64,000 nt of DNA from Myxococcales bacterium (lineage in GTDB: Bacteria > Myxococcota_A > Bradymonadia > UBA7976 > UBA1532), in contig JACKDP010000002.1 of assembly GCA_020633435.1 (NCBI GenBank), positions 567,788 to 631,787 of the forward strand, given 5' to 3'. The notes beneath the pieces are model-generated. The model saw only the letters and a list, made by a program, of their open reading frames with translations. It was not told where the DNA came from and did not search any database. A program made the position numbers and the translations under genes. Positions 20,505 to 56,009 of the stretch are shown here, piece after piece (position 1 is the first letter of the stretch; every line of letters starts with the position of its first letter).

Positions 20505-20601
20505 GCGGCCCGACTCCTCGCCCTCCGTCCTCGGCCCCCTGGGGCGCCTCGTCGCCCCCCTCATGCGCCCCCGCCGGCCCCTCAAGCCGGGCGGCCGGGC
20601 C

Positions 20602-25991: not shown

Positions 25992-26097
25992 CAGGATCTG
26001 TTGGCGGGTGTGATGGCACCCACCGGACAGCGCTGGAGACCCCGGCGGGACGGGGCTATGCTCGCCTGGCGGCCCGGGAGCCGCCAGGGAGGGAGCC

Positions 26098-26958: not shown

Positions 26959-27053
26959 TCGGGGACCCCCCGAAAATCTGGTGGTGCCCGCGTCGCCGAG
27001 GCGCCGGGAGGATGACCGCCGGCCGGTCCTCCCTCCCCGGCCTCGGAGGTCTC

Positions 27054-29945
27054 ATGCGCTCGACCCTGCGCACCGCGCTCCTCGCCCTCGCCCTGGCCCC
27101 CACCGGCGCGAGCGCCCTCAGCCTGCAGGACTGCGTCCCCAGCCAGGCGTCCCCCGGCGCCATGCTGCCCATCGGCGCGCCCGGCGACGACGGCTACCTG
27201 TACCGGAGCGTGCTCTACCAGTTCCTCCAGACCACCCAGCTCGCCGACGTCAGCTACCCGGCGACGTGGTGGCCGGCCGTCACGGCGTTCTCCCAGAACA
27301 CCGCCCTGCTGCAGATGCCGCCGATCGCCTACGGCGTCTACACCTACGTCTTCGGCAGCGGCACGCTGAACGCCGCCCAGCAGCCCGTGCCGGGCAACGG
27401 CTACGAGGGCATCTGCAAGGCCGACTGGAGCCAGGCAGCGCCGACCCTGACCGCCACCGACCGCCTGCAGATCGAGCAGCTCCTGCTCATGACCGTCCAG
27501 TACGGCATCGTGCCCGACCTCACCTACCGCTGCCTCTTCGAGCCCGCCATCTTCGAGCTCTCGTACATCGAGGACGTCGCCCGCTGCGAGGCCCGCGTGC
27601 CGGCGTTCCACGACCACTCGACGCTGACGTGGCTCATGCAGTGGGACTACCCCGGCAACATCTTCCGGCTCGCGCCGGACGTGACGCTGCGCCGCTTCGC
27701 CACCCACCTGGCCTTGCAGCTCATCCAGCTCGACTGGGCCGTCTGGCAGGGCGGGCCGGCGTCAGCGCCCATGACGGTGCCCTACCCGCCCCAGGGCACG
27801 CCCCCGGCCAACGGGGAGGTCTTCCCCCACCCGGGCCCCCTGAACGCCAACCACTACCCGTCCGGGGTGGGCAACCTCGCGGGGGACGACCTGGCGGACC
27901 GGCTGGTGCTGCTCGCCCGCATCTACGCGTGGGCCGACGAGGCCCAGCCAGCCTGGCTGACGCCCGGCCTGAAGGCGGCGTTCCAGGAGGGCCTCGCGCG
28001 CAACGGCGAGCGCCTGGCCCGCATGAACGTGCTGGGCATGCACACAAACCGGGCCTTCCAGGCCGTCCACGCCCTGGCCGCCATCAAGGCGGCGCTGGTG
28101 GGAACGTCCTGGCAGAACGCCGCGGTCGGGTGGCACAACCGGACGCTGGAGCGCTTCCTCGACGTCTTCCGGGAGGCCGGCTACTACGGCGACGATGATG
28201 GCCTCTACGACGCGGCCTACAACCGCTACGGCCTGCTGCACACCGTCCGGGCGCTGGTGCAGGACCCCGGCACGATCCTCGCCAACGTCGTCCGCCTGAC
28301 CGATCAGGCCCGCAAGCTGGGCAACCTGGAGGCGCACCTGACGTTCACCGACCGGACGGGCATCCACACCTCGCCCTCCGGCATGAGCGTGCGGACGGGC
28401 GCCGGGGTGGCGGGCCGCAGCCGCCGCGTCGTCGCGAGCGCCGACTTCGGCGTCAACCAGCTCGCCGCCCACGCCTTCGGGGTGCCCTACGCCTACGCCC
28501 GCGCCCGCGACCTGTCCCACGTCGGGCCCTACGACGCGGGCGGCTTCGCCGGCGCGGTGGACGCGCGCACGAACAACCCGGCCTACGAGGCCGACCTGGC
28601 CTGCTACGTCCACCCGAACTTCGACGCCTTCCCCTGGCTGCCCCAGCTCACCCCGCCGCCGCTGCCCCAGCAGACGGAGGACGGCCTGAGCGGCTGGTAC
28701 CGCCAGTACGGCACCCCGGTGCACGCGGTGGAGCAGCTCGCCCCGGGCTCCCTGCAGGCCTACGCCGACGCCCTCGACCAGGACCCGGGCGCGCCCCTGC
28801 TGCCCTTCGAGGAGGCGGGGCCGCATCTCGCTGATTTCGATGGGGAATTCGTCTTCGCCAAGTTCGGCGGGGCGGGCGTGTACTTCGAAGGCGCGCCGGG
28901 CGGGCCGAGCTTCGATGCCTACCAGCCGGCCAGCGCGCGCGACTACGCGGCGGTGGTGCACCTGGGCCCCGTCTCGCCGGGCCACAACGTCCCCCCCTGC
29001 GGCGAGAGCAACCCTCATGGCTACGGCGGCGGGCAGCTCGCGACGCTCTGGGCGCCCGGCGGCGGCCTGTTCTCGATGACGCGCCGCAAGGGCTACAACA
29101 ACGACTGCGAGTCCTGGCAGCACGGCGAGTGGACGGCCATCGCCCTGCACCACGTGGCGCTGCTCGACACCGCCGAGCGCGTCGCCACCAGCGCCCGCAT
29201 CCCCCTGCCCGCCACCTTCACCGCGTTCACGGCGGGCGCCCTGCCGTCCGGCGCCGACCGCGACTTCCTGGACGACGGCGCCGCCGGCATCGCGGGCCTC
29301 GCGACGCTGCCGGCGGATCAGGCCGACCACGCCTTCCTGGAGGCCGCCGGGCCGTTCTCGAGCCAGCGCTACCCCACCGACGGCAGCCTCGTGGAGACCG
29401 CGGCCACCCCCATCGACTACCGGCGGCGCTTCGTCCTCGGCGAGGGCGGCGTGACGGTGCGCACCGAGCTGCTGACCCAGACGGTCATCATGCCCACGGA
29501 GCGCCAGGGCCAGCCGGTGAAGCAGAAGGAGTACCCGCAGCCCATGCCGAAGGTCTTCCAGGCCTGGGAGATCTTGCCCCTCGGGACGGCGGAGGGGCCG
29601 ACGGCGACCGGGCACGTCGCCACCGACATCACCCTCATCACCGCCCAGGGCGCCGAGGTGGGCGTGCCGGGCCCCTCGCCGTCCTCGGAGGCCGTGGCCT
29701 ACGCCGACATCAAGTACGTCGTCGTCACGCGCGAGGCCGGGACGCTGACCATCGAGTTCGCGAGCCCCCAGACCATCGCCTTCTCGGAGGACTACACCGC
29801 CTTCGGGGGCGACACCCCGTCGCGCAACCTGATGGTCGACCTGACCCCGAGCCGCCTCTCCAGCGCCAACGTCCTGGCGGCGGCGCCCCAGGCCGAGGTG
29901 CTGCAGCCCGTCGTGGTGGAGTACACCCTGCGCGCCTCGCTGTAG
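27054..29945 (+). CDS. large secreted hypothetical protein (963 aa)
   Basis: The ATG at 27054 has GGAGG 5 nt upstream. MRSTLRTALLALALAPTGASALSLQDC signal peptide. Consistent coding composition, no recognised catalytic motif. The track ORF from 26814 is 5' read-through. Confidence 0.55.
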   Translation: MRSTLRTALLALALAPTGASALSLQDCVPSQASPGAMLPIGAPGDDGYLYRSVLYQFLQTTQLADVSYPATWWPAVTAFSQNTALLQMPPIAYGVYTYVFGSGTLNAAQQPVPGNGYEGICKADWSQAAPTLTATDRLQIEQLLLMTVQYGIVPDLTYRCLFEPAIFELSYIEDVARCEARVPAFHDHSTLTWLMQWDYPGNIFRLAPDVTLRRFATHLALQLIQLDWAVWQGGPASAPMTVPYPPQGTPPANGEVFPHPGPLNANHYPSGVGNLAGDDLADRLVLLARIYAWADEAQPAWLTPGLKAAFQEGLARNGERLARMNVLGMHTNRAFQAVHALAAIKAALVGTSWQNAAVGWHNRTLERFLDVFREAGYYGDDDGLYDAAYNRYGLLHTVRALVQDPGTILANVVRLTDQARKLGNLEAHLTFTDRTGIHTSPSGMSVRTGAGVAGRSRRVVASADFGVNQLAAHAFGVPYAYARARDLSHVGPYDAGGFAGAVDARTNNPAYEADLACYVHPNFDAFPWLPQLTPPPLPQQTEDGLSGWYRQYGTPVHAVEQLAPGSLQAYADALDQDPGAPLLPFEEAGPHLADFDGEFVFAKFGGAGVYFEGAPGGPSFDAYQPASARDYAAVVHLGPVSPGHNVPPCGESNPHGYGGGQLATLWAPGGGLFSMTRRKGYNNDCESWQHGEWTAIALHHVALLDTAERVATSARIPLPATFTAFTAGALPSGADRDFLDDGAAGIAGLATLPADQADHAFLEAAGPFSSQRYPTDGSLVETAATPIDYRRRFVLGEGGVTVRTELLTQTVIMPTERQGQPVKQKEYPQPMPKVFQAWEILPLGTAEGPTATGHVATDITLITAQGAEVGVPGPSPSSEAVAYADIKYVVVTREAGTLTIEFASPQTIAFSEDYTAFGGDTPSRNLMVDLTPSRLSSANVLAAAPQAEVLQPVVVEYTLRASL

Positions 29946-30015: not shown

Positions 30016-31105
30016 ATGCGCGCCCTCGCCCTGCTCGCCCTCCTCAGCTCGCCGGCCTGGGCCGACCAGCTCCGCCTGACCGGCCTCCTGCGCGACTTCA
30101 CCGACGCCCACCCCGACTTCGAGGCCGAGCTCGGCTCGGATCGGGGCATCGTCGAGGACCGCCTCGGCGCCGATGGCAAGCCCGTCTACGCGCCGGCTGA
30201 CCGCAGCGACACCACCCATGGCCGGGCCGCCTTCGACCAGTGGTACCGCGACGTGCCGCAGGTCAACCAGCGCGCCCCCATCGTGCTCACCCTCGTCAAT
30301 TCTCCCGCAGATCCGCACATCTACACGTTCCGCGACCTGGACTTCTTCCCCATCGACGGCCAGCTCCTGGGCGACCAGGGGCGCGACCACAACTTCCACT
30401 TCACCGTCGAGCTGCACACCACCTTCGTCTACGAGGGCGGCGAGGTGCTGACGTTCGAGGGGGATGACGACCTCTGGGTGTTCGTGAACGGGCGGCGCGT
30501 CATCGACCTGGGCGGCGTGCACGGCGTCGAGACGGAGACGGCCGACTTCGACGCCCTCGCCGGCGCCATCGGGCTGCAGCGCGGCCAGACCTACCCGCTC
30601 GATCTCTTCTTCGCGGAGCGGCACACCAGCGAGTCCCACTTCACCCTCTCGACGACGGTGCGCTTCGAGGACGCGGGCGACCCGAACGACCCCGGCGGGG
30701 GCGGCGCCGGGGGCGGGGGGGCTGGCGGGGCCGGCGGGGCCGGCGCCGGGGGCGGCGCGGGCGAGCCCGGTGGCGGCCCCCGCGAGGATCCCTGCCTGGG
30801 GGATCCCACCTGCGTCATCCCATGCAGCGATGGCGAGTGCCCCTACGAGCGCGTCTGCCGCGACGAGCGCTGCGTGGATCCCTGCGAGGGGGTGGCCTGC
30901 GGCGCCGGCGAGACCTGCCAGCGCGGCGCCTGCGTGGCGGGGCCTGCGGGGCGGACGCCGGCTCTGCGCCGCCTCGGCCGCGGCGGACGCCGGGTCGGGC
31001 GCCGACGGCGACGGCGGCGGCTGTACGCAGGCCCCCGCCCCCCCGGCCGGCCTGGCCGCCCTCGCGCTCCTCCTCGCCCTGCGGCGTCGGCGGCGCCCCG
31101 CTTGA
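30016..31105 (+). CDS. fibro-slime (PA14-like) domain secreted protein with Gly-rich linker, Cys-rich module and MYXO-CTERM-like tail; body and tail are in different frames (frameshift/indel near 30935-30990)
   Basis: Signal peptide MRALALLALLSSPAWA. Fibro-slime-like motifs: LTGLLRDFTDAHPDFE, DGKPVY, FDQWYRD, FFPIDGQLLGD, DDLWVFVNGRRVIDLGGVHG, LDLFFAERHTSESHFTLSTT. The tail ...GDGGGCTQAPAPPAGLAALALLLALRRRRRPA* is in the +1 frame (track ORF 30770..31105), whereas the body frame reads through to 31224 with Arg-rich nonsense. Confidence 0.55.
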
Positions 31106-31160
31106 CACCGCCGCGGGGGCCGTCTACTCCCTCACCCCACCCTGCGTGGAGATCCCCTGC

Positions 31161-31862
31161 ATGCCTCAGAGCCTCGACGTGCTGCTCTTCGCCGCCGTCT
31201 CCGTCGCCGGCCTCCACACCCTGATCGGCATCGACCACACGCTGCCCTTCGTCGCCCTCGGCCGCGCCCGGGGCTGGTCGCTGCGCCGCATCCTGGCCGT
31301 CACCGCCCTGTGCGGCCTGGGCCATGTGCTCTCTTCGGTGGTCCTGGGCGTGGTGGGCATCGGCCTGGGCACCGCCCTGGAGCAGCTCTCCTGGATCGAA
31401 TCGAGCCGCGGCGAGCTGGCCGCCTGGCTGCTCATCGCCTTCGGCCTGGCCTACGCCGGCGGGGCCCTCCTGCGCCGCGCCGGCCGCCAGCCCGGCCGGC
31501 ACGAGCTGCACAGCCACGGCGACGCCCTGGTGCACGCCCACCCCCACGCGCCAGGCCATGGCCACGCCCGCAGCGCGGCCTCCGTCACCGTCTGGAGCCT
31601 CTTCATCATCTTCGTGCTGGGTCCCTGCGAGCCGCTCATCCCGCTGCTGATGGCCCCGGCCGTGGAGCATGGGGCCGGCGCCGTCGTGCTCGTGGCGTCG
31701 GTCTTCGGCGCCGTCACCATCGGCACCATGCTCGTGGTCGTGACGCTGCTGCACCACGGCCTCAAGCTCGCCGCCCTCCAGGGCCTCGAGCGGCACGCCC
31801 ACGTCCTCGCCGGCCTGGCCATCGCGGCCTCGGGCGTCGCCATCCAGAGCCTCGGGATCTAG
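31161..31862 (+). CDS. NicO/RcnA-like nickel/cobalt efflux membrane protein with His-rich loop
   Basis: Multiple TM segments and a central HELHSHGDALVHAHPHAPGHGHARS His-rich loop. VLGPCEPLIPLL resembles the RcnA GGLIPCPAA motif. The N-terminal LIGIDHTLPF resembles HGLEPGHS. Confidence 0.5.
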   Translation: MPQSLDVLLFAAVSVAGLHTLIGIDHTLPFVALGRARGWSLRRILAVTALCGLGHVLSSVVLGVVGIGLGTALEQLSWIESSRGELAAWLLIAFGLAYAGGALLRRAGRQPGRHELHSHGDALVHAHPHAPGHGHARSAASVTVWSLFIIFVLGPCEPLIPLLMAPAVEHGAGAVVLVASVFGAVTIGTMLVVVTLLHHGLKLAALQGLERHAHVLAGLAIAASGVAIQSLGI

Positions 31863-32897
31863 GTGCGCGTCCTCGTCGTCGGCGGCGCGGGCTACTACGG
31901 CCGGCGGGTGCTCGCCGCCCTCGCCCAGGTGCCCGGCGTCGAGGCCCACGCGGCCGGGCGGCGCGGCCCCGTCATCGTGGATCTGGCTGATTCTACGACG
32001 TTTTCTGCGTTCTCCGGCTTCGACGCCGTGGTCGGCTGCCACGACAGCGTTGGGGTGGCCAGCGACGCCGCGGTGGCCTGGTGCGTGGCGCAGGGCCTCG
32101 TCTGGCTCGACATGGGCGCCGACGCCCAGAGCGTGGAGCGGCTGCTGGCCCTTGAGCCGGCGGGGCCGGGCCTCGCGCTCGTCGGCGTGGGCCTCTTCCC
32201 GGGCCTGAGCACGGCGCTGGCCGTCGAGGCCGCCAGCGCGACCGGGCGCCCCGACCGCGTCGAGATCGGCGTGCGCCTCGCCGCGCTCTCGGGGGCGGGC
32301 CGGGGCCTCTGCGATCTGATGGTGGCGCTGCTGGCCCGGCCGTCGGTCTGGACGCTGGGGGGCCGGCGCCTCACGGGGCCGGCGCTCGGCCCGGGCCGCT
32401 ACGTCGACTTCCTGGGCGCCGGGCCCGCCTGGGCGCGCCGGGTGGGGCTGGCGGACGCCCCCCTGCTGCCCGCCGCCACCGGGGCCGGCGACGCCGCCAT
32501 CCGGCTGGCGCTGCGGCCGCGCTGGCTGGGCCCCCTGCTCGTGCTGGCGGCGGGCATGGTGCGGCTCGCCGGCCCGCTGCGGCCGGCCCTGCTCCGCGTC
32601 ATCGGCTGGCAGCTGCGCCTGGTCCGCGGCTGGCTGCTGAAGCGCCGCCCCGCGACGGTCGAGATCACCGCCGTCGCCGAGCCCGGCGGCGCCACCGCGC
32701 GCCTCGCCTGCCCGGACGGCCAGCGCGCCACCGCGGCCGCCGTGGCGGCCACCATCGCGTTGCTGCAGGCCGAGAAGCGCCGCCCCGCCGGGCTGCACCC
32801 CCTCACGGACGTACTGCCCCCCGACGCGCTGCTGCGCGCGACCCAGGCCCTCGACGCCAGCGTCGTCGTGGAGCTGCCGTCAGTCGGCGGGCGCTGA
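31863..32897 (+). CDS. NAD(P)-binding Rossmann protein, saccharopine dehydrogenase-like
   Basis: The GTG start immediately follows the previous stop. VRVLVVGGAGYYGRRV glycine-rich dinucleotide loop. Confidence 0.5.
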   Translation: MRVLVVGGAGYYGRRVLAALAQVPGVEAHAAGRRGPVIVDLADSTTFSAFSGFDAVVGCHDSVGVASDAAVAWCVAQGLVWLDMGADAQSVERLLALEPAGPGLALVGVGLFPGLSTALAVEAASATGRPDRVEIGVRLAALSGAGRGLCDLMVALLARPSVWTLGGRRLTGPALGPGRYVDFLGAGPAWARRVGLADAPLLPAATGAGDAAIRLALRPRWLGPLLVLAAGMVRLAGPLRPALLRVIGWQLRLVRGWLLKRRPATVEITAVAEPGGATARLACPDGQRATAAAVAATIALLQAEKRRPAGLHPLTDVLPPDALLRATQALDASVVVELPSVGGR

Positions 32898-33677
32898 GGC
32901 CGCCCACGTCACGGGCGCCGGCAGGCCCTCGCGGAACACCACCATCTCGCCAGGCGCCATGCGGTGCCAGACCTCCTGCCGGGTGAGCGGCTGGGTGGCC
33001 ACGATGGTCACGATGTCGTTGGGCGTCGTCTCCTGCTTGAAGTCGACGCTGACCTCGGTGTCGAGCAGCCGCGCCACGCCGAACGGGGCGCGCCGCGTGA
33101 TCCAGCAGAGCTTCGTGGTGCAGTACGCGAACAGGTGGGTCGCGTCGCTCAGCAGCATGTTGAAGGTGCCGTGGCCCCGCAGCTCCTCGGCCAGGCCATA
33201 GACGAAGCGGTGCAGGCTCGCGGGCCGCCGCGGCGGCTTCGGGAAGCGCGTGCGGATGGCGTCGAGCAGCCAGCAGAAGGCGTGCTCCGAGTCGGTGGTG
33301 CCCACCGGCTGGTAGAAGCCGAGGGGCCGGTCCTTCACGCCGGGGAGCTTGCCGTTGTGGGCGAAGCACCAGTGGCGGCCCCAGAGCTCCCGCACGAACG
33401 GGTGGGTGTTGGCCAGGCAGACGCGGCCGTGGGTGGCCTGGCGCACATGGCTGACCACCACGCAGCTCTTGATGGGGTAGTCGCGCACGAAGGCCGCGAA
33501 GGCCGACTCCGCGCTGGGGGCCGCCTCGTGGAAGGCCCGGCAGGCCCGCCCATCATAGAAGGCGATGCCCCAGCCGTCGGTGTGCGGACCCGTCTTGCCG
33601 CCCCGGACGCTCAGGCCCGTGAAGCTGAAGCAGATGTCCGTCGGAGTGTTGGCGCTCATGCCGAGGAGCTCGCACAT
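32880..33677 (-). CDS. class II glutamine amidotransferase (YafJ-type, N-terminal Cys nucleophile)
   Basis: MCELLGMSAN... N-terminal nucleophile Cys2 pattern, HVRQATHG, HNG motifs. Confidence 0.75.
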   Translation of the reverse strand: MCELLGMSANTPTDICFSFTGLSVRGGKTGPHTDGWGIAFYDGRACRAFHEAAPSAESAFAAFVRDYPIKSCVVVSHVRQATHGRVCLANTHPFVRELWGRHWCFAHNGKLPGVKDRPLGFYQPVGTTDSEHAFCWLLDAIRTRFPKPPRRPASLHRFVYGLAEELRGHGTFNMLLSDATHLFAYCTTKLCWITRRAPFGVARLLDTEVSVDFKQETTPNDIVTIVATQPLTRQEVWHRMAPGEMVVFREGLPAPVTWAASAPAD

Positions 33678-33770: not shown

Positions 33771-35320
33771 CTACCTGGGCGGCCCGTCGCCCCGCAGCAG
33801 CGCCAGCAGCAGGGCCGCCGTCTCGCGGTCCGCGAGGAGCGCCCGGCAGCGCGCGCGCAGCTCGGCCTCGTCCTCGATCTCTTCGCCCGTGACCCGGCCG
33901 ACGTGGCGCGCGACCCGCAGCAGATCGGCCAGGGGCAGCGACTCGGTGGCGTCGACGCGCACATGCCGCGACGTCCACGCGGCCGCGGGCGGGGCCTCGG
34001 GCGTCCGCTCCGGCAGCCGCGCGCCCCAGCGGCCCGCGACCCGCGGCCGCACCCGCAGGGGCCGCCCCTCCCGGGTGGTCGAGGCGTCGACGGGCATCCA
34101 GCGCGGCCCCTGGGCCGTCCCCAGCAGCGCCATCGCCCACAGATGATCCGGCTCGTCCACCTGCCCCCGGTCGAAGATCCACCCCGTCGCCACCGCCGCC
34201 GGCACGCCCGCGCGGCGCAGCAGCTCCACGGCCAGCACGTTGAGCTCGTAGCAGACGCCGGCGCCCAGGTGCCGGGCGTCCCGGCCGGCGTGCAGCGCCG
34301 CGAGCTGGGCGTTCTGCCGCCCGCGGCTCAGGCGCCGGAGCCAGCCGGCCAGGCGCGGATCCTCGAAGCGCGCCGGGTCATAGCGGTAGCTGGCGCGGAT
34401 GAAGTCGCGGATGGCGATGGCCCGCTCCAGGGGCGCGATGCCGCTGACGCGATCCACCAGCGCGTGGCACTCGGCGGGCAGCTCGTTGTCGGGGGCCGTC
34501 GGGCGCAGGAGCGTGGCCGGGGCGTCGACGACGTAGGCCGGGCCGAACTCCGGGGCCTGGCCGAGGGCGATCTCGCAGCGCACGTCGGCGTCGCGCGAGG
34601 CGCTGAGGAGCGGCAGGCCGCCCGGGGTGCGGATGACGAGCGCCGCGGGCTGCGCGTCGGCGGAGAGCAGGCGGCCGTGGAGCGGCACCGGCAGGACGGA
34701 CTCGCCCGCGGGCAGCCGGCCCGCCAGGCTCACCCGGTGGCGCGACTCCCCCGCCGCGGCCGACCAGGCCGGATCGATGGCCTCGGCCGTCCAGTGCTGC
34801 GTGCGCGGATCGAAGCGGTCGGCGATGAGCGCCGGGGCGTAGAGCCAGGGCGACGGGAGCTGGCGCGGGGCCGTAGCGAACCCATACGCCGCCGGGCGAC
34901 CCCGGTCCTCCAGCCAGGCCCGCCCGTCGTCGAGCTGCGGGCCCACGTCGCCGCGGGGGCGGAAGAAGCGGTCGTGGCTGGCCTGGAAGGGCCGGCTCGC
35001 GTCGCCCCCCGTGGCGGGGCTGCGGCGCGAAAGGCCGCCGGGCGCGACGGGCGTGGGGGCTGGCGGCGGCGTGGGCTGCGCGGGCGCCTCCGGCGGCGGC
35101 GCCTCGCTCCGGCTCTGGCGGCGCCTCCTCCCCGCCCAGCCACTTGCGGAACCGCGCCAGCAGCCAGGGGCCGAGACGGCCTCCTCGGCGGCCGCCGGGG
35201 TCGCTGGCTCTGGCGGGGCGGCGGCGGGGCCGCGGGGGCGTGGGCGCGGGGTCGGGGCGCTGCCGCCGCGGGGCCGGGCGCGGGCGCTGGGCGCGGCGCG
35301 TCGAGCAGCAGCCGCATGGC
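33771..35320 (-). CDS. C-terminal transglutaminase-like cysteine-protease-fold segment of the giant protein; out of frame with the upstream body
   Basis: From the track ORF 33771..39656, only the last ~500 codons look real: ...RDARHLGAGVCYELNVLAVELLRRAGVPAAVATGWIF...DHLWAMAL is a transglutaminase-core (G.C....L.....LR..G.PAR...G) signature. The upstream part of that ORF is G/R/P nonsense antisense-frame material. Confidence 0.5.
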
Positions 35321-38300
35321 CGGCAGGCGCACGCAGGCCAGCAGATCGGCCACCAGGGCCACCTGCTCCGGCGTGGCCTTGCCGCTGACGAGGCGGTCCC
35401 GGCAGAGGGCGTCTGCGACGGTCGCCAGGTCCGGATCGCCGCGCACGACCAGCGTGTCGGCCACGACGGCGGCCTCGACCGGCCAGCGGACGGCCTCCCC
35501 GAGCAGCCGCCCCTGGCGCTCGATGCGGTCGGCCAGGTGCGCCGTCGGCACGCGCCCGAAGTCGGCCCTCCAGCGGGCCGGCCAGCGGCGCAGCGCGTCG
35601 CCGAGGCCCCAGAGGGCGGCCACGCTCGCGCCCAGCTCGCCGGCCAGCGGCGCGATGCCGGTGGCGGTCGGCGCCCCCCGATCCTCGAACAACGCCCCCG
35701 CCCGGGGCACGCCGGCCTGGGCCAGGACCGCCTGCAGGGCGTCGGGATCGCTGTCCCCCGCGTGCACCGCCAGCAGATCCACGCCCTCGGCGCGCGCGGC
35801 GTGGACCAGGCTCATCGGCGCCGGCCACACCAGCCGCGGATCCGACGTCCAGCAGAGCGCCAGGCGCCCGCCGGCGTCGGCCACCACCACACCGCGGGCC
35901 GGCGCGGCCTCGCCCGCTCGCACCCAGGCGCGGGGGATGACGTCCGCCAGCTCGGGCTCGGGGCCGAGCAGCGCGTCGCCCTGGGCCATGAACGCCGTCG
36001 CCAGCTCGTCGAGCACGTCGGCGTAGTGGCGTGGCGCCGGGCCGGGGGGGATGCGCAGGGCCGCCACCAGCCGCGGCAGCGTCCGCCCCGCGCTGAAGCC
36101 GCCCCGCCGGCGCCCCAGCTCCCCCGGGGGCAGGTCGCGGATGAGCGTGCGGGCCGGGTGGCGGCTGTCGTCGTCGGCCAGGAACCAGGGCCCGTCGCCC
36201 AGGCCGTCCCGCGCCGCCTCGGCCGTCAGCCGGCGCGCCTCGATCTGATCCTCCAGCCAGCGCAGCACCACCTCGTCCAGGGCGCCGCCCGGCGGCACGC
36301 GGCCGAGGACGTCGGCCAGGCGGGCGTCGTCGGCGCCCCGGCAGCCCAGCCGGCGCCACACCGCCTCGGGCACGTCGGCCCGCAGCGCCACGGCCGGGTA
36401 GAGGCCGCCCGCGTCGGCCCCCAGCAGCGCCTGCACCGCGGGCGTGGGCCAGTAGAGGCGCGACGGTGAGCGCAGCCCGCCCTGGGCGTCGGGCAGCCAC
36501 GTCCGATCCCGCAGGCTGAGCGCCTCGATCAGCCGGGGGGCCTCGACGGCCCGGTCCAGCACGTAGCGCGCGCAGGCGAGCCGCTGCTCGCGGCCCTCCC
36601 CGGGGGGGTGGTCCAGCAGGGCCGTGAGGGCGGCGTCGTCCAGGTCGGCGTCGGCCCCGGCGCCGCGGATCAGCGCCCGCGTGGCCGCGTCGTAGCGCGG
36701 GTGCAGGATGGGGGGCGGCGCCGGCAGGAAGCCCGCCAGCGTGGTGGCCAGGTCGTCCCGGGCCGGCACCAGCACGGCCTTCGGGCGGTGGAAGGCCCCG
36801 TCGAGGGCCTGCACCCGGATGCGCCGGCCCAGCTTGAACCGCTGCGCCTGCTCGGCGGCGTGGGCCGGGCGGTCCGCCTCGACCCGCAGCGTCCGGGCCA
36901 GGAACGCCAGCAGCGTGGCCTGCCGCTCCCCGTCCCCGTCCGCCATCTGCAGGCCCTCCAGCACATGGTCCACCAGGGTGTGCAGCCGCGTTTTCTCCAA
37001 AGAATACAGGTCCTTGAAGAGGGCGCGCAGCGCCTCGGGCAGCTCGGCGGTCGGGTTCCACGAGAGGTCCAGATCGGGCAGGCCAGGCTCGAAGAGCAGC
37101 GCGTTGGCGGGGCGCAGCAGCCCGTCGGGGGTGGGCAGCACGCAGGCGCGCCCCAGGGCCGCGCGGGCCGCCTCGTCGGCGCCGATGACCTCGGCCCGGG
37201 CGAGCACGGCGCGGTACAAGGCGTGCCGGGCCTCGGGATCCGCGAAGGTGGGGTGCGTCTCCGCGGGCACCGGGGACGTCGCGTGCTCGGCCAGGGCCTC
37301 CAGCCAGCTGCGCACCGGCAGGCGCGGCGCGAGGGCCGGCGCGACGCCCCGGGCCACGGCGGCCCACGTCGGGTCGGCCAGCCGCACCACCAGCGGGGTG
37401 CGCGCCACGGTGGCCAGCTCGTCGAACGTCGCCTCGAAGCGGGCGCCACGGCACAGGCAGCCCTGGGCGTCCACGGTCAGCGGCAGGCGCGCTGGATCGA
37501 GGCCGGGCTCCTCCATGGCGACGACGAGCAGGCGCCCCACCTGGCCGGGCGTCTGCAGCCACGGCGGCTGCTCGGCCAGGGGCTCCCCGGGCCGGGCCTC
37601 CTCGGCCAGCTTCTCCAGCAGCAGCGACACCGGCGAGCGGAACCGCAGCACGCTGGCCAGGGCGTCGGCGTCGGCCTCCGCCCGGTGCTCGAGCAGCCCC
37701 GCCGGCGGCACCTCCACCACGCCCAGGAGCGCGGATCCTCGCAGCGCGGACGGCCGCACGAGGGCGGACGCCCGGGCGTGGCCGCCATCCTGGTGGGGCC
37801 ACACCGCCAGGTCGGCGAGGGCGGAATCCCAGGCGTCGACGAGGTGCACCAGCGTGTCGCGGACGGTGTCGAGCGCCACCGGGCGGGCGTCGGCCGTGAC
37901 CACCAGCGCCAGATCCGCCGGCCCCGCCGGCCGCAGCCGCAGCGCCTCCAGCAGCGGGGCCAGCGCGGCCTCCGCCGAGGGCTCCAGGCGCCGCCGCCCG
38001 GTGTGCTCCAGCGCGGCGGCCAGGGCGGCCGGGACGCGGTGCGCCCCGCCCCGATCCGGGGCGTCCCAGTGCCCGAGGGGGGCACGCTCGCCATCCGTCG
38101 TCGGGTACAGCGGCAGCGTCGTCAGCGGCGCGAGGCGCGACGGCGGCAGGCTCTGCCCGGCGGCGGCGAGGGCCTCGAAGAGCGCGTCGATGGGCACCTC
38201 GGCCACGTCGTCGGCCTCGGCGCTCGCCAGATCCTGCACCATGCGGCCCAGATCCGGCGTCCGCAGCGCCTCCTCCAGGCCCAGGGCCGTGGCGGCGCGG

Positions 38301-41236
38301 ATGGCCTCGGCGCCCGCGAGGGGCCAGGCCGCCAGCGCCCGGTACACGGCCGCCACGCGCGGATCGGCGGCCGGCGGTCGCAGGGCCGCGAGGGGCCGCA
38401 GCGCCCCGTCGCGGGCGGGCCAGATGGGGGCCTCGGCCAGCGCCTGCCGGGTCGGGCCGCTGATGCGCTCCGCGCGCTCCGCCACGAACGCGAGGGCCGC
38501 GCCGACGTCGCCGATGGCCTGGCCCGCCAGCTCGGGGGGCGGGCGCCCGGCCAGGTGCCGCGCCAGGTGGTCGGCCGTGAGCGCCACGATGGGCAGGCGC
38601 CCCACATGCGGCGCGCCCCGCGCCAGATCGCGGCGCAGCCAGGCCACCCCGGGCAGCAGGCCCCGCAGGCCATCTTCGGCGGGCACGAGGGCGCGGTCCG
38701 GCCCGAGGAGCGGGCGACGCTCGCCGGTGTCCGTGGGGAACACGGCGGCCGCCGCCAGCCGGTCGAGCTGGCGGCCCGACAGCTCGCCCTGGGTCTCGGC
38801 CAGGACGGCGTGCAGGGCGTCGAGCGCCGCGTCGTCGATGGGCAGGCCGTCGGCCGCGTAGAGCGCCAGCACCGCCGGCAGGTCGAGGACGGTCACCCCG
38901 AGGCGGCGCAGCAGATCCGCCTGGCTGGCCTGGATGCCGGCGTCGACGAGGGGCGGCCGCACCTCCAGGCCCCGCAGCCAGCCGCCGAGGGGGCCGGGCG
39001 CCGGCAGGAAGACGGCCTGGGGCCCCCGCACCGACCGCAGCCGCCCCCGCTCGTCGGGCACCAGCGGGGCGTCCTTGACCTGCTCGAGCTGGGCCGCGGG
39101 CCGCCCCGCCAGCCACCGCAGCACCCGACCAGCGCCGGCGCGGCTGACGATGGCCGCGGCGTCGGCCGCCAGATCGGCCAGCACGTCCTCGGCCGTGAGG
39201 CTGCCGACGCGCAGGCGCGCCCACAGGGGCCCCAGGTGCAGATCGGCGTCCAGTTCCGGGGCCAGCAGGGCCCGCCCCGGCGCGGCCAGCGCCCGCAACT
39301 CGGCGTCCGCCCTCAGGATTTCGGACGGCGCATGCAGCACGCCCGCGGCGTCGGGCAGCACCGCCAGCCCCCGCAGGGCGTCCACGGGCCAGCGCTCCCG
39401 GGCCAGGAACCGCAGGATGACGGGCATCGCGCCGGGCAGCCAGGCGGCCCCCTGGGCGGCGGTGAGGAGTGCGTCGAGGTCGGCGGGCGCCAGCGCCACC
39501 GCCCCCAGGTCCCGCGCCACCTCGGCCAGGCCCCCGGGCAGCGGCGCCACGGGGCGTCGCCCGGGCGCGGGCGCCAGCACGGCGGCGAGCGCGGCGTCGG
39601 GGACGAGCAGGGCGCCCGTCGGCGTGACCGGCTGGCCCTGGGCGTCCTGCAGCCACGGCACCTGGCGGACGGCCTCGCGAAACCCGGTCGCGACGTGCTC
39701 GAACGGCGCGGTGACGGCCTGCCGCGGCGCGACGGCCATCAGCGGGCGGGCGTCCAGGCCGGCCGCGACGCGGCGCTGGACGAGGCCGCCCAGCAGCGCC
39801 CCGGCCCGCGCCAGCGCGGCGTGGTTGGGGGCGTCGTCGCCGTCGATGCGCTCCCGATCCACGGGCACGGCGAAGCGGGCGTGGATCAAGAAGTCGTGGC
39901 CGCTCGGCTGCCGCGTCGGCAGGAACGCGAAGACGGAGGGCTCCCCGGCGGGCCAGCGCGCGGGCTGGCCTGCCGCGTCCAGGGCCACGGCCACCAGCAC
40001 CTCGTCCGCCGGGGCCCGGGGGCGCTCGGCGTGGTGGGCGGCCACCAGGAACCCCCGCCGCACCACCGGCCCGCCCTGGTCGTCGACGAGCTCCACGCGG
40101 TCGTCGCCGGTGCCCGGGCGCCGGGTCAGGCGGCGACGACCCGCGGCGTCCTCGATCTCGATGGTCTGCACGCTGCGCAGGGTGAGCAGGACGTGGGCCG
40201 GCAGCGCCCGGGCGCGGCGGGCGAGCGCCGCCACCCCCCGCGCCTCGTCGGCCGGATCGCGCAGCGGCAGGACGAGCGTCGTGCCCACGCCGCCGGGGCG
40301 GCGCTCCAGGGGCCGGGGCAGCGACACGTCGGCGATCTCGAAGGCGAAGACGTCGGAGTAGACGCGGGGCCGCTCGCAGACGGCGTAGACGGACTTGAAC
40401 CCCACGCCGAACAGGCCGATGTGGCCGGCCACCTTCGTGGTCTGGCCGATGGAGAGGACCCCCACCACGTCGCGCACGTCGAAGGGGGCCCCGTCGTGCC
40501 GGATCTCGACGGCGTCATCGGTGAACGTGACCCGCCAGGACCGGGCCCCGGCGTCGTCGGCGTTCTGCAGCAGCTCGGCCAGAAAGTGTCCGGGTTCCGT
40601 ATAGATACGCTGGGACAGCAGCTCCTCGGCCCGGGCCAGCGACAGGGAGCGGGGCTGGCTCGCGAGGACGGCGAGGACGCGGTCCCCGAAGGCCGCCCGG
40701 CGGGCGCGGAGGGCGTCGTCATCGGCCAGCGCGGCGATCCGGGCCCCGGGCAGCAGCAGCAGATCCTGGTCCGTCCCCTCCCCGGCGGCGACGCGCGCGC
40801 CGGCGGCGGCCTGGAGGTCGGCCAGGGTGGCGGGGGCGTGGCGCCCGAGCCAGCGCAGGATGACGCAGCTCTCGGCCAGGCGCTCGACGGGCTGGGCCAG
40901 GAGCGTGCGGGCCAGGAGCGCGGCGAGGGCGGCCTGGGCCTCGGCGTCGCCGGCCTGGCTGCCCGGGCCGAGGGCGCGCGCCAGCCCGGCGGCCGGGAGC
41001 GTGGCGAGGGCGTCGGCCAGGGCGCCTCGCACCGTCGGCTCCAGCACCGCCCCCGAGGCCAGCAGGCCCGCCATCAGGCGCGCGAAGGGCTCGAAGTCCG
41101 GGCCCTGGGCCGTCAGCGCCGTGAGCGTGGCGAGGCCCTGACCCGCGGCCACGGCGGCGTCGATGATCGCCGCCTGCGCGGCGAAGGGGGCCCGGGCGGC
41201 GGCGGCCCAGGCCTCGGCGGTCGGTGCGTGGGCCAT
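35321..41236 (-). CDS. giant (~1,970-aa in this frame) protein with N-terminal sacsin/NOV-type GHKL (Hsp90-like) ATPase domain and a long Ala/Leu/Arg-rich helical region; probably continuous with the transglutaminase-like segment
   Basis: Start taken at ATG 41236 (MAHAPTAEAW...). SQRIYTEPGHFLAELLQNADDAGARSWRVTF...IRHDGAPFDVRDVVGVLSIGQTTK...GLFGVGFKSVYAV is the Bergerat-fold N-box/G-box pattern seen in sacsin SRR/NOV-type GHKL ATPases. Coding-like composition runs to a Pro-rich linker at ~35300-35400, where the frame degenerates. The track ORF continues to 34730 as Arg-rich nonsense. Confidence 0.6.
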
Positions 41237-41324: not shown

Positions 41325-42020
41325 ATGGCCGAGACCCGCACCGTCCTCCCCACGCCGCACCCGAGGCTCGTCCGCGACGCCGCCGGGCAGCCCCTCCACC
41401 CGCCCGCCGACTGGAGCCTCCTGCCCCCTGGCGACGCCGCCCTCACCCGCCGCGTGCGGGCCGAGGGCGACCACTGGATCATGGAGGAGCGCCGGGGCCG
41501 CAAGGTCTTCTCCCGGGGCACCTGGGCGCCGACCGACCGCATCGAGCGCATCACCCGGATGCTGGAGCGCGAGCGCGCCCAGCCCGCCCATGGCGAGCGG
41601 CTGGCCCGGGATCGCGCCCGCCGCGACAAGGCCCAGGCCGCCTACGTCGAGGAGTTCCGCCGCGAGGTCCTGGCCTTCCTGGCCTTCGCCCCGCGGCACG
41701 CCGCCGTGGGGCTCGAGCTGGCGACGCGCATCGCCGAGCACGCGACCCCCGTGGGCAGTGGCACGGTGGCGCGCACGGCCCGCATCCCCGTGGCCGAGCG
41801 CGCCGAGGCCGCCGTCATCGCCTGGATGCGCCACCAGACCACGGCCTACGACCGCATGGTCATCCCCCGCATCAAGGGCGAGCGGCGCGAGACACGGCGG
41901 CGGCTGGCCGAGCGCTCGCGGCAGGTGCTGCAGCGCTACCGCGTCGACGCCGACCCGCCCGCCGACTGCCCCCTGCAGGCCGCCCTGGCCCGCCCGGCGC
42001 CCCCGCCCGACCCCGCCTGA
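41325..42020 (+). CDS. conserved hypothetical protein (231 aa), divergent from the giant gene
   Basis: Globular composition (WIMEERRGRKVFSRGTWAPTDRIERITRMLERE...AVIAWMRHQTTAYDRMVIPRIKGERRE). No family named with confidence. Confidence 0.5.
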   Translation: MAETRTVLPTPHPRLVRDAAGQPLHPPADWSLLPPGDAALTRRVRAEGDHWIMEERRGRKVFSRGTWAPTDRIERITRMLERERAQPAHGERLARDRARRDKAQAAYVEEFRREVLAFLAFAPRHAAVGLELATRIAEHATPVGSGTVARTARIPVAERAEAAVIAWMRHQTTAYDRMVIPRIKGERRETRRRLAERSRQVLQRYRVDADPPADCPLQAALARPAPPPDPA

Positions 42021-42129
42021 GCCGCCCCGCTTGACCGGCGCCCGGACCGCTGGTAGTCCCCTCGTTCCCCCGCCGTCTCCGCGCCACGCCCCGTGGCCGA
42101 GGCCGGTGGGGTCGGCGCGAGGGAGGATC

Positions 42130-43650
42130 ATGGCCGGCGTGGTGCTGACAGAGGCGGCGGCGACCGTCTGGCGGGCCCTGGAGGCGGGGCCCCGCGAGGT
42201 GGGGAGCCTGGTGGCGAGCACCGGGCTGGATCAGAGCCGCGTGATGGTGGTGGCGACGGAGGGCGAGGCCGGGGGCTTCCTGCACGTGGTGGCCCGGCCC
42301 CGCGACGAGGTGGAGCCCGCCGAGGATCTGGCGGCGCAGCTCGCCCTGGGCCTGCCCGAGCGGCGCGCGGCCCGCCTGCTGGCCGACGCCGGCGGCGCCC
42401 TCGCCATGGCGGACTTCGTGGCGGCGGCCCGCGACGCGGACGTGGCCGTCAACGAGGTCTTCCGCTTCGGGACCGCCCGCGGCTGGGTGCAGCGCGGCAA
42501 GGGCGAGGTGGTGCTCACCGACGCCGGCCGCGCCGCCCTCGACGCCCCCGCCGCCGACGAGGCCGCGCTGGCCCAGGTGCTGGCCGGCCAGCGCTTCGCC
42601 GATGAGTGGGCGGGCGTGGACGCGGCCGAGGCCCTGCGGCTGCTGCAGGGTCGCGCCGGCCTCGCGAAGCTGCGCAAGCGCACCGAGCGCGTGCTGGCCC
42701 TCACCAACGCCGGCGCCGCCGCCCTGGCCGCCGGCGTCACCGTGAAGCGCGAGCAGAACGCCCTGAGCCAGGAGGACCTGCGCTCCGGGGCCTGGCGCGA
42801 CATCACCCTGCGCCCGTACGACGTCACGCTGCCGGCGGCCACCGTCCGCCCGGCCCGCCTGCACCCGGTCCGCCGCATCATCGAGCAGGCCCGCCAGGCG
42901 TTCCTGGAGCTCGGCTTCGAGGAGGTCGCCTCCCCGGCCGTCGAGAGCGCGTTCTGGAACTTCGACGCCCTGTTCCAGCCCCAGGACCACCCCGCCCGGG
43001 ACATGCAGGACACCTTCTACATGGCCGAGCCGGCGCGCACGACGCTGCCCGATCCGGCCATCGTGCAGGCCGTCCGCGGCGCGCACGAGGACGGCGGCGA
43101 CACCGGCTCGACGGGCTGGGGCTACACCTGGCGGCCCGAGCGCGCCGAGGCGGTGGTGCTGCGCACGCACACCACGGCGGCCACCATCCGCGCCCTCGCC
43201 CGCAAGCCGAACCCGCCCCACAAGGCCTTCTGCGTCGGGTGGACGCACCGCAACGAGACCTTGAGTTTCAAGCACTTGCCGGTGTTCCACCAGATCGACG
43301 GCATCATCATCGACGAGCACGCCAACCTGGCCACGCTGCTGGGGACGCTGGACGCGTTCTACCGGAAGATGGGCTTCTCGGGCGTGCGCTTCAAGCCGGC
43401 CTTCTACCCCTACACCGAGCCCAGCGTGGACGTGATGGTCTACATGGAGAGCCGCGGGAAGTGGATCGAGATGGGCGGCAGCGGGATCTTCCGCCCCGAG
43501 GTCACCGAGCCCCTGGGCTGCAAGCACCCCGTGCTGGCGTGGGGCCTGGGCGTCGAGCGCCTGGCCATGCTGCGCCTGGGCTTCCCGGACATCCGGGAGC
43601 TGTACCAGGGCGGCCTTGACACCGTGGAGGGGGTGCCGCTGTGCCGGTAG
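42130..43650 (+). CDS. pheS: phenylalanine--tRNA ligase alpha subunit, archaeal/eukaryotic-type (long form, 506 aa)
   Basis: Class II motifs: FQPQDHPARDMQDTFY, the motif-2 region FRPE, and motif 3 GLGVERLAMLRLGFPDIRELY. The ~200-aa N-terminal extension and overall length fit the archaeal/eukaryotic-type alpha subunit rather than the ~340-aa bacterial one. GGGAGGA RBS. Confidence 0.8.
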   Translation: MAGVVLTEAAATVWRALEAGPREVGSLVASTGLDQSRVMVVATEGEAGGFLHVVARPRDEVEPAEDLAAQLALGLPERRAARLLADAGGALAMADFVAAARDADVAVNEVFRFGTARGWVQRGKGEVVLTDAGRAALDAPAADEAALAQVLAGQRFADEWAGVDAAEALRLLQGRAGLAKLRKRTERVLALTNAGAAALAAGVTVKREQNALSQEDLRSGAWRDITLRPYDVTLPAATVRPARLHPVRRIIEQARQAFLELGFEEVASPAVESAFWNFDALFQPQDHPARDMQDTFYMAEPARTTLPDPAIVQAVRGAHEDGGDTGSTGWGYTWRPERAEAVVLRTHTTAATIRALARKPNPPHKAFCVGWTHRNETLSFKHLPVFHQIDGIIIDEHANLATLLGTLDAFYRKMGFSGVRFKPAFYPYTEPSVDVMVYMESRGKWIEMGGSGIFRPEVTEPLGCKHPVLAWGLGVERLAMLRLGFPDIRELYQGGLDTVEGVPLCR

Positions 43651-45446
43651 TCAGCATCGACGCGGCGCGGCTCAACGCGCTGCTGGCCAACAGCTACGCG
43701 CCCGAGCGGCTCTCGGACGCGCTGGAGCAGATCGGCTGCGACGTCGAAGAGGTCGTCGAGCTGGGGCGGTTCCGCTGCCCCGTCTGCGCCTCCATGGTCG
43801 AGGGCAGCCAGGGCGCCGAGACGCGCGTCTGCGGCGTCTGTGGCCACAGCCAGGAGGCCGTCTTCGAGCAGGTCGACACCATCACGGCCATCCGCCTGGA
43901 CCTGCTGGCGGCGCGCCCCGACCTCTTCGACATCGGCGGCCTGGCCCGCGCCCTCCAGGGCTACCTGGGCGAGGTGCGCGGCATGCCGCAGTACCCGACG
44001 GCGGCGTCGCCGGTGGTGGTGCGGGTGGACGCCAGCGTCGCGCGGCCCGAGAGCTTCCGGCCGCACATCCGCTGCGCCGTGGTGCAGGTGCCGCCGCTCG
44101 ACGACGTGGGCCTGGCCACCCTGATGAAGCTGCAGGAGAACCTGCACTGGGGCGTCGGCCGCGACCGCAAGCTGGCCAGCATCGGCGTCTACGACCTCGA
44201 CACGCTTGAGGGCGACATCGCCTATACCACCCTCGATCCCGACGCCGAGCCCTTCGAGCCCCTGGGCATGCCCGGCGTGACGATGAGCGGGCGGACGATC
44301 CTGGAGGAGCACCCCAAGGGCACGGCCTACGCCCACCTGCTGGCGGATCTGAAGCGCTACCCGGTGCTGCGCGACGCCGCCGGTCAGGTGCTGTCGATGC
44401 CGCCCATCATCAACAGCGAGGGCACCCGCGTCCGCGTGGGCTCGACGCGCCTCTTCGTCGACGTGACGGGCCCCTCCGAGGCGGCCGTCGTCAACAGCCT
44501 GAACATGCTGGTCTCGTCGCTCTGCGAGCTGGGCGGCCAGGTGTCGACGGTGCGGGTGATCGGCAGCGACGGCGCCGAGGTCGTCTCCCCCGACCTGACG
44601 CCCCGGAAGTACGAGGTCTCGCTCTCGCGGGCGAAGCAGTGGCTCGGCCTGCCCCTCGACGCGACGAGCCTGGTGGACTGCTTCGAGCGGATGCGGCTGG
44701 ACGTCGCGGCCCTCGACGGCGGCGATCTGTTCCAGGTCACCTGCCCCGCTTTCCGCAGTGATGTCCGGCACATGGTCGATCTCTTCGAGGATCTGGCCAT
44801 CGGCTTCGGCTACGAGAACATCGTCCCGGCCATCGTGCCGACGATGACGGTGGGGCGGCCCCGGCCGGAGGAGCAGCTCTCCCACCTCGTGCGCACGGCC
44901 CTCGTCGGCCTGGGCTACACCGAGACGATGAGCCTGCCCATGACGACGGAGGCGGACCACTTCACCCGCCTCGGCCAGCCGGTGCCCGAGCACTTCGTCC
45001 GGGTAGCCAACCCGAAGCTGCGGGCCCTCACGGTGGTGCGCTCGCACCTCATGGGCGGGGTGCTGCAGGCCCTGCACGAGAACCGCCGCCGTCCCATGCC
45101 CGTGCGCATCTTCGAGCTGGACAACTGCGTGCGCCTGGACCCGGCGGGCGAGAACGGCACCACGGAGGAGCGCCGCCTCTGCTTCGCCGACATCGGGCCC
45201 GACGCGGGCTACGCCTCGGTGCGCGCGCGGCTGGACGCCCTGCTCTGGGAGCTCGGCCTGACGGCCACGTTCACCGCCGTCGAGCACCCCGCCTTCGTGC
45301 CCGGCCGCGTGGCCCGCTTCACCACCGGCACCCCGGTGGAGGGCCTCATCGGCGAGGTGGCCCCCGGCGTCCTCGACGCCTTCGGCATCGACCTCCCCGT
45401 CGGCCTCGTGGAGTGCCTGATCGCCCCCCTCGCCTGGGACCTTTGA
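43641..45446 (+). CDS. pheT: phenylalanine--tRNA ligase beta subunit, archaeal/eukaryotic-type (601 aa)
   Basis: The GTG start overlaps the pheS stop by 10 nt. MPVVSIDAARLNAL... resembles an archaeal PheT N-terminus. B3/B4 and B5 regions are present with no bacterial-type N-terminal tRNA-binding or C-terminal anticodon-binding domains. ~600 aa versus ~800 aa for bacterial PheT. Confidence 0.8.
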   Translation: MPVVSIDAARLNALLANSYAPERLSDALEQIGCDVEEVVELGRFRCPVCASMVEGSQGAETRVCGVCGHSQEAVFEQVDTITAIRLDLLAARPDLFDIGGLARALQGYLGEVRGMPQYPTAASPVVVRVDASVARPESFRPHIRCAVVQVPPLDDVGLATLMKLQENLHWGVGRDRKLASIGVYDLDTLEGDIAYTTLDPDAEPFEPLGMPGVTMSGRTILEEHPKGTAYAHLLADLKRYPVLRDAAGQVLSMPPIINSEGTRVRVGSTRLFVDVTGPSEAAVVNSLNMLVSSLCELGGQVSTVRVIGSDGAEVVSPDLTPRKYEVSLSRAKQWLGLPLDATSLVDCFERMRLDVAALDGGDLFQVTCPAFRSDVRHMVDLFEDLAIGFGYENIVPAIVPTMTVGRPRPEEQLSHLVRTALVGLGYTETMSLPMTTEADHFTRLGQPVPEHFVRVANPKLRALTVVRSHLMGGVLQALHENRRRPMPVRIFELDNCVRLDPAGENGTTEERRLCFADIGPDAGYASVRARLDALLWELGLTATFTAVEHPAFVPGRVARFTTGTPVEGLIGEVAPGVLDAFGIDLPVGLVECLIAPLAWDL

Positions 45447-55935: not shown

Positions 55936-56009
55936 CAAACATTTGTCTAGCCTGGTCAAGACATTCGACTCGCATTCGAAGAACGCCGGTTCAAATCCGG
56001 CATGTACGA
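55936..56009 (+). tRNA. tRNA-like element (74 nt, anticodon CGC, Ala-type) with imperfect acceptor stem; possible pseudo-tRNA or att-site remnant
   Basis: Manual fold: D-stem gtct/agac with an agcctGGtca loop, a 5-bp anticodon stem ttcga/tcgaa with loop cTCGCat (U33, A37), a 4-nt variable loop, and a perfect T-arm gccgg-TTCAAAT-ccggc. The acceptor caaacat/atgtacg has two adjacent mismatches (2:71, 3:70). It is AT-rich relative to the genome and lacks G3:U70. Confidence 0.35.

Follow-up and report, generated by a model that had tools for sequence, protein, structure and literature searches.

Sacsin-type Hsp90-like ATPases are poorly understood, both in human disease (ARSACS) and in bacterial immunity (Tiamat). 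In eukaryotic sacsin three SRR modules are combined with a ubiquitin-like (UBL) domain at the N-terminus and with DnaJ and HEPN domains at the C-terminus (PMC3710099), and sacsin modules are found, as are transglutaminase-like peptidases, among the components of conflict systems (PMC8195603). A known relative of the transglutaminase-like domain considered here is TgpA of Pseudomonas aeruginosa. Its periplasmic domain acts as a transglutaminase in vitro without a need for Ca, and tgpA, an essential gene in this bacterium, is co-transcribed with PA2875 and PA2874 (PMC3507681). Here we describe a gene that joins modules of both kinds. It lies at 41236..33771 on the minus strand of a 64,000-nucleotide stretch of a Myxococcales bacterium (contig JACKDP010000002.1; the whole stretch is referred to as the window) and, with a probability of about 0.9 for both its identity and its architecture, encodes one giant protein composed of a sacsin-type GHKL ATPase, a repeat array and a transglutaminase-like enzyme.

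Because the window is 73-80% GC, genes were found by the GC content of the third codon position (GC3). The giant gene begins with an ATG at 41236 and ends with a TAG at 33773..33771, and the N-terminal sequence read from this ATG (MAHAPTAEAW...) aligns with the N-termini of its homologues. The gene spans 7,466 nt, which leaves a remainder of 2 on division by three, and after repair of frame breaks within a linker it has ~2,470 codons. The conceptual fusion of the upstream frame (A) with the downstream frame (B), of 2,472 amino acids (aa), was used as the search query, and in a protein search homologues cover 99-100% of it. A preliminary description, made from the sequence alone, had proposed a giant sacsin-like GHKL protein with a C-terminal transglutaminase, and this is borne out, with both Pfam domains scoring above cut-off and the fusion conserved in more than 100 homologues. 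The hidden Markov model (HMM) searches it had called for recovered SACS PF25794, NF047352 and Transglut_core PF01841, and the motifs it had picked out, ELLQNADDAGA (aa 221-231), GVGFKS (within GLFGVGFKS, aa 274-282), GAGVCYEL and DHLW, are all present in the translation. The two outcomes it had named as fatal to the proposal, domains that profile searches could not recover and a pair of independent genes, were both looked for and neither was found.

The ATPase occupies aa 200-350 (40187..40639, on the minus strand as are all parts of the protein) and is matched by Pfam SACS PF25794 (E=3.6e-10; 40.5 bits, cut-off 32.8) and by NCBIfam NF047352, a sacsin N-terminal ATP-binding-like model (E=1.4e-21; 76.8 bits, cut-off 50). 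A sequence-profile search of the PDB found sacsin SRR1 (5v44-5v47) at E ~1e-6; sacsin and Hsp90 were the only matches, with no solved relative of the repeats. The motifs of the Bergerat fold are present, these being the E, N and D of ELLQNADDA, D248-G249 of motif II and GxxGxGFK. Residue conservation was scored in an alignment of 100 sequences together with alignments of 41 sequences. In at least 95% of the 100 sequences E221, N225, D228, D248-G249, T267-K268, G274, G277, G279 and K281 are kept, and in the 41-sequence alignments the catalytic residues of both enzymes are invariant, except for D248 (at least 90%). With all of the ATP-binding residues intact, the domain is predicted from its sequence to be an ATPase.

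At the other end of the protein is a transglutaminase/papain-like core (aa 2226-2375, 34065..34514), which matches the Pfam model Transglut_core, PF01841 (E=1.7e-10; 41.6 bits, cut-off 23), and is also marked by conservation. Its triad consists of Cys2313 (34253..34251, in GAGVCYEL), His2349 (34145..34143, in DHLW) and Asp2368 (34088..34086, in PVDAS), three residues that never vary in the 41-sequence alignments and occur in at least 95% of the 100 sequences. The domain passes a fold match to a solved member of the TgpA-like branch of PF01841. The family keeps this domain throughout, also in its members of 2,850-2,930 aa. A swapping of effectors within the family was considered and rejected, as the most distant members keep a weak Transglut_core match.

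The remainder of the protein was mapped with two AlphaFold2 (AF2) models built from the 41-sequence family alignment, one of aa 1-1200 (predicted local distance difference test, pLDDT, 88.7) and one of aa 1273-2472 (pLDDT 86.5, predicted template modelling score 0.72). Ahead of the ATPase is an all-helical domain (aa 1-195, 40652..41236), modelled as ten helices with pLDDT mostly >90 (model md271c4827e83), and as an exhaustive search matched this region solely in the giant family it is a family-specific domain. Behind the ATPase is an Hsp90-middle-like transducer domain (aa 351-500, 39737..40186), recognised by Foldseek against the PDB and by conservation, with the conserved motifs LPT (439-441) and DRER (460-463). 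When the modelled aa 200-700 were compared with the PDB the best Foldseek matches were the N and M domains of TRAP1/Hsp90 (E ~1e-7, >500 columns), with N-terminal fragments of MutL/MLH1 below them at E ~1e-5.

The preliminary description had seen the ~1,700 aa that follow as plain helical sequence rich in Ala, Leu and Arg. This does not hold, as the AF2 models and repeat HMMs show an ordered array of ~12 tandem repeats of ~105 aa each (aa 501-1780, 35897..39736). Each unit is made of helices and a beta-hairpin with the motif hh-P-x3-G-x4-P, the hairpins lying at aa 528, 625, 725, 832, 938, 1043, 1145, 1253, 1366, ~1475, 1580 and 1684, and HMMs of single units match other units at E 1e-6 to 1e-8. 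Throughout the family this array has a strongly acidic character, the median charges of its two halves being -18 and -20, and it is modelled as a highly ordered repeat scaffold. It is followed by an alpha/beta 'cap' domain (aa 1781-1985, 35282..35896; residues 511-707 of model m9f3bb457e1a3, pLDDT >90), the first element of which, at aa 1784, is a degenerate 13th hairpin; of the ordered parts this domain is the least conserved. Then comes a disordered linker rich in Pro and Ala, of ~85 aa (aa 1986-2069, 35040..35281), defined by three-frame translation, tblastn frames, an alignment to the DNA of L005 (the closest relative), composition and pLDDT <50. Within it is a conserved amphipathic helix, PWLLARFRKWLGGEE (35107..35169), which is read in the third frame only and corresponds to an AF2 helix at aa 2010-2019. 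The enzyme core itself is preceded by a TgpA-like beta-sandwich domain (aa 2070-2225, 34515..34982, AF2) and followed by a helical bundle (aa 2376-2472, 33774..34064; AF2 helices, model residues 1148-1193) that is net basic across the family, with a median charge of +8. No transmembrane-like or hydrophobic segment and no N-terminal signal is evident, the maximum 19-residue hydropathy being 1.73, in a buried helix, and the giant protein is soluble.

It is apparent that this protein belongs to a conserved but uncharacterised family which is already in the databases. Against a collection of 5.8 billion proteins the fusion query found more than 100 proteins of 2,300-2,900 aa that have both PF25794 and PF01841, and membership is seen as full-length collinear homology, with 99-100% coverage and 36-63% identity in proteins of 2,479-2,663 aa. 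The best intact homologue, P0002 of 2,479 aa, aligns with 99% of the query at 63% identity. When a single genome was scanned for each species, 42 loci came to light. Wherever the contig is long enough, a locus has both its N-terminus and its transglutaminase end within one contiguous span of ~7.5 kb, thus the fusion is the native state. A phmmer search with aa 1-1200 against 1.84 billion representatives returned 136 clusters at E<=1e-30 which make up the giant family; beyond these the scores fall sharply, to proteins of ~1,000 aa that match aa 205-560 only. That no characterised system combines the two domains, as the preliminary description had put it, stands in so far as none is described in the literature searched, but the family itself was already annotated, as Hoch_5788 of Haliangium ochraceum.

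The members are almost all from the Myxococcota (Haliangium, Kofleriaceae, Sandaracinaceae, Polyangiaceae, Paraliomyxa and Bradymonadia). A few are on contigs of metagenome-assembled genomes (MAGs) labelled Thermoleophilia or Planctomycetota (L008, L015 and L028), which is either mis-binning or horizontal transfer out of the Myxococcota. The family was not found in the viral contigs of IMG/VR, and searches of plasmids and phages gave no full-length copy, only the ATPase core, set in unrelated architectures that bear the annotations DUF3883, HNH or 'HSP90 family'. Four plasmid matches (H4, H5, H10 and H12) are from bacteria and haloarchaea and have this sacsin-type core in proteins with a DUF3883 or HNH endonuclease annotation, which suggests a wider set of ATPase-plus-effector fusions within the superfamily.

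In this genome the deposited gene is split by the frame breaks in the GC-rich linker, and therefore the fusion is invisible in its protein set. The NCBI record for the locus holds only the frame A open reading frame (ORF) of 2,168 aa (MCB9546033.1, 'hypothetical protein H6706_09290 [Myxococcales bacterium]'), which is the sole 100% match of the fusion query and corresponds to frame A up to its first stop. A frame problem near 35320 had been suspected in the preliminary description; it is real, and more complex than a single shift. GC3 is ~0.95-1.0 in frame A from ~41240 to ~35370, there is then briefly another frame, and frame B follows to the stop, with the change from frame A to the third frame falling between ~35300 and 35170 and that from the third frame to B between ~35107 and 35040. 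Read for an uninterrupted frame, as a test of family membership, the window copy is broken by at least two changes within 35040..35281. Homologues share the linker motif (L/F)xxR(F/L)(R/K)(R/K)W(L/F)xG(D/E), in-frame in P0002-P0025 and in L005, the closest relative of the window copy; the equivalent motif in the window, LLARFRKWL (within 35169..35107), is readable in the third frame only, and it is for this reason that there must be at least two changes. A repaired, single-frame linker would read ...PAAPPPP-(x)-LLARFRKWLGGEE-(x)-APPPEAP...

There are three ways to read this interruption. That the ATPase and the transglutaminase are two independent genes which merely abut would account for the parts lying in different frames in the window, but in the homologues both domains are part of a single protein of 2,300-2,900 aa, every locus is one contiguous gene and the linker motif is conserved and in-frame elsewhere, so that this idea has next to no probability and is counted as already refuted. 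That the window copy is a genuine pseudogene, with linker indels that end the protein at 2,168 aa and separate the transglutaminase domain from it, has more in its favour and is nonetheless unlikely. It would explain why the NCBI annotation has only the truncated ORF. Two further points weigh against the view that the protein is intact: at least two frame changes fall inside ~200 nt, and a globally error-prone assembly is not shown by the rest of the window, since three of the four same-strand overlapping ORF pairs that were checked carry Pfam domains and are distinct genes, none of them being a split domain. On the other side, the 1.3 kb downstream of the breaks has no stop codon and a GC3 of ~0.95, with the triad and all other conserved residues intact, and the breaks fall exactly in a stretch of 86% GC with ten homopolymer runs of at least four G or C, where consensus errors concentrate. 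The closest relative (L005, MAG ABC2.71, 3803..11249) has 80% nucleotide identity across the whole gene and a single frame over aa 761-2400, the whole linker included, although its frame is broken at four other places, near aa 34, 150, 761 and 2400; as this is also a MAG, and its breaks are different ones, a technical cause is suggested. Given the intact coding signal and conserved residues downstream, the breaks in the window are probably a consensus or assembly error rather than real pseudogenisation, by roughly 3:1, and the organism therefore probably makes the full-length protein. Elsewhere in the window 26014..26958 (+) and 26754..29945 (+) overlap by ~200 nt in different frames, with GC3 of 0.93-0.94 and no Pfam match; this pair could be another frame break in a protein of ~1,300 aa, or two genes.

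What such a protein might do can be approached by analogy, and an ATP-gated scaffold which offers protein targets to a tethered transglutaminase or peptidase is the function we favour, at somewhat less than an even chance. ATP binding would close and dimerise the N-terminal ATPase, as in Hsp90, MutL and MORC, and hydrolysis, helped by the arginines of DRER in the middle domain, would reopen it. This cycle could reshape the long acidic repeat scaffold, which is proposed to bind a protein partner and not nucleic acid, because of the acidity of the repeats and because Pfam shows no nucleic-acid-binding domain in the giant protein. The cycle might then gate the access of the flexibly tethered Cys-His-Asp enzyme to the bound partner, which it would crosslink, deamidate or cleave, and the amphipathic helix of the linker may serve to dock the enzyme on the scaffold or on a membrane. 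Several considerations count against this proposal. That ATP drives dimerisation, that the repeats bind clients and that the transglutaminase is regulated are all argued from analogy, an accessory role fits at least as well for a family found in only tens of species representatives (42 loci), and partial matches to the TmtA protein of Tiamat point to defence instead.

Those matches would be explained if the giant protein were a single-gene anti-phage or abortive-infection protein like Tiamat, in which the ATPase and repeats sense a component of an invader and a toxic or neutralising transglutaminase-like effector replaces the NOV_C/DUF3883 or HNH domains of smaller relatives, a reading that is possible but doubtful. 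The PADLOC models of TmtA (PDLC03964-03972) match aa 209-723 with E=2.4e-39, the nearest outgroup, that of the ~1,000 aa proteins, matches TmtA up to 1e-103 with several of its members ending in NOV_C/DUF3883 (P0217, P0219 and P0221), and the repeat-unit HMMs also match these outgroup proteins, which have a few copies of the same hairpin repeat. The DUF3883 or HNH annotations of plasmid-borne relatives of the ATPase core, the presence of both types of module in lists of conflict-system components (PMC8195603), a sparse taxonomic distribution and one homologue that adjoins an AAA_15/AAA_21 and DUF3226 pair are in keeping with such a role. However, the match covers only model positions 69-610 of 1,486, which is 36% of the model and 21% of the giant protein, and no NOV_C domain is found in the protein with Pfam. 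There is no defence island, integrase or transposase in the window or in five homologue loci with tables of called genes, the context being one of housekeeping and metabolic genes with pheST 0.9 kb away; synteny persists inside sub-clades, the effector domain does not vary even in the most distant members, and the family is absent from IMG/VR with no full-length copy on plasmids. The earlier suggestion of an effector or conflict system is kept only as a possibility, and a lineage-specific role in proteostasis or cell biology is about as likely as Tiamat-like immunity. A role on DNA, as a GHKL clamp of the MORC/MutL kind that compacts or patrols it, with the repeats as a DNA-binding arm and the transglutaminase as an accessory, is improbable. 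GHKL plus transducer is the engine of MORC and MutL (PMC2292703), and the structural matches to MutL/MLH1 N-terminal fragments are significant, but Hsp90/TRAP1 and sacsin are the better matches when set against MutL or MORC, the repeats have their strongly acidic character, and neither a domain nor a neighbour of a DNA-binding, nuclease or methylase kind was found with Pfam, in the window or in the clustered loci.

Returning to the ATP-gated scaffold, a more specific and more tentative form of it is that the family is an unrecognised single-polypeptide machine of the Myxococcota, in which the scaffold captures a specific cellular or viral assembly that the tethered transglutaminase modifies covalently. 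If true, this would be a new immune or proteostasis mechanism and would provide the first tractable bacterial model of sacsin-type ATPase modules, in a conserved family with intact catalytic residues and a clear enzymatic output domain. As a member exists in the cultured Haliangium ochraceum DSM 14365, the link between ATPase cycle and effector is directly testable.

The gene neighbourhood was compared by all-against-all clustering of the flanking ORFs in 46 loci, five of them also with called-gene tables. Downstream of the giant gene and co-oriented with it is a class-II glutamine amidotransferase (GATase) gene (33677..32880, minus strand; PF13230, E=1.4e-110), and upstream and divergent from it is a DUF2293 gene (41325..42020, plus strand). 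Both neighbours had been pointed out in the preliminary description and are indeed present; as functional partners, though, they fail, being common to the window and L005 only and absent from 45 other homologue neighbourhoods. The five tabulated neighbourhoods have no gene in common with the window or with one another. Conserved operon partners were likewise rejected, as only ubiquitous Ser/Thr kinases recur (9/46 loci, on either side and either strand). Local synteny is kept in three small sub-clades, the window with L005, L007-L009, and L002 with L006. Since no neighbour other than the Ser/Thr kinases recurs across the 46 loci, the giant gene is a stand-alone chromosomal gene, in which the GATase and DUF2293 genes take no part. 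Scans for promoters and terminators in this region of 80% GC found nothing, and an Rfam scan of the window gave one match only, a distant single tRNA gene at 55936..56009 (+).

Just past the DUF2293 gene, ~0.9 kb from the start of the giant gene, is a pheS-pheT operon (42100..43650 and 43641..45446, both plus strand) encoding long-form subunits, with an alpha subunit of ~516 aa (tRNA-synt_2d, E=3.9e-86) and a beta subunit of ~600 aa with B1, B3_4, B5 and CLM domains, a set typical for the archaeal/eukaryal type rather than for the ~800-aa bacterial beta chain. At L002 the AAA_15/AAA_21 ATPase and DUF3226 pair (6256..7925, minus strand) is directly upstream of and divergent from the homologue P0004; it looks like a small defence-type module and is the sole such neighbour seen. 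On the other side of the GATase gene in the window are a PA14-domain ORF (30016..31224, +) and a coding-like ORF without a Pfam match (31863..32897, +, GC3 0.97), although long antisense ORFs leave the gene assignment ambiguous across 30016..32897. Further away, long PPxPP-type proline-rich tracts are found at 18582..18947 (in a plus-strand frame), beside an ion-channel gene (18966..20696, minus strand), and at 1180..2730 (+), in a protein that also contains Extensin-like_C (E=5.2e-24).

Of the known systems, the one with the same full architecture is Hoch_5788 of H. ochraceum (ACY18265.1 / WP_012830857.1 / UniProt D0LHC0), a protein of 2,543 aa annotated as 'transglutaminase-like domain-containing protein' which has both Pfam domains and scores 912 bits (E=3.7e-268), the best BLASTP segment having 47% identity over 15% of the window-protein query; the window copy differs from it by the frame breaks in the linker. 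No description of Hoch_5788, of sacsin-transglutaminase fusions or of the Tiamat mechanism was found in the literature searched.

Hsp90, TRAP1 and HtpG provide the best overall structural match to aa 200-700, in their N and M domains, but identity is ~12%, the Hsp90 C-terminal dimerisation domain is lacking and the NCBIfam HSP90 model reaches 17 bits against a cut-off of 455. Membership of the MORC/MutL group, with its GHKL domain and S5-fold transducer, was rejected, with Hsp90/TRAP1 outranking MutL/MLH1 in Foldseek and sequence profiles finding sacsin and Hsp90 only. With eukaryotic sacsin the giant protein shares the same subtype of Hsp90-like ATPase, with the motifs ELxQNAxDAGA and GxFGxGFxS, and both are giant multidomain proteins; it differs in having one ATPase module, a different repeat array and the transglutaminase domain. 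An orthologue of sacsin was rejected on the grounds of a single SACS match and no DnaJ, HEPN or UBL domain in Pfam.

TgpA (PA2873; 6g49/6g4h) is an inner-membrane protein with its enzyme domain in the periplasm, whereas the giant protein, which has 17% identity to it, is without a membrane segment and is fused to a GHKL ATPase; the membrane topology of TgpA, an N-terminal transmembrane region followed by the periplasmic enzyme domain, was looked for in the giant protein and not found. The genes PA2875 and PA2874 presumably encode a MoxR-type ATPase and a DUF58 protein, and if so they are a loose precedent for a chaperone-like ATPase working with such a transglutaminase.

A further comparison in the ATPase is with TmtA of Tiamat and the bacterial sacsin/NOV proteins of ~1,000-1,700 aa, which are also single-gene and have a homologous GHKL and middle module and the first repeat units. 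These relatives end in NOV_C/DUF3883 and the giant family in a TgpA-like transglutaminase; they have few repeats against 12-13, and the giant family has an extra N-terminal domain and, in the window and the five tabulated loci, is without a defence-island context. As the outgroup proteins of ~1,000 aa match TmtA far better, and several of them have the NOV_C/DUF3883 end, the giant family is, on sequence grounds, a distinct branch of the bacterial sacsin/NOV/TmtA-type ATPases, one in which the repeats are expanded to 12-13, a helical N-domain has been added and the C-terminus is TgpA-like.

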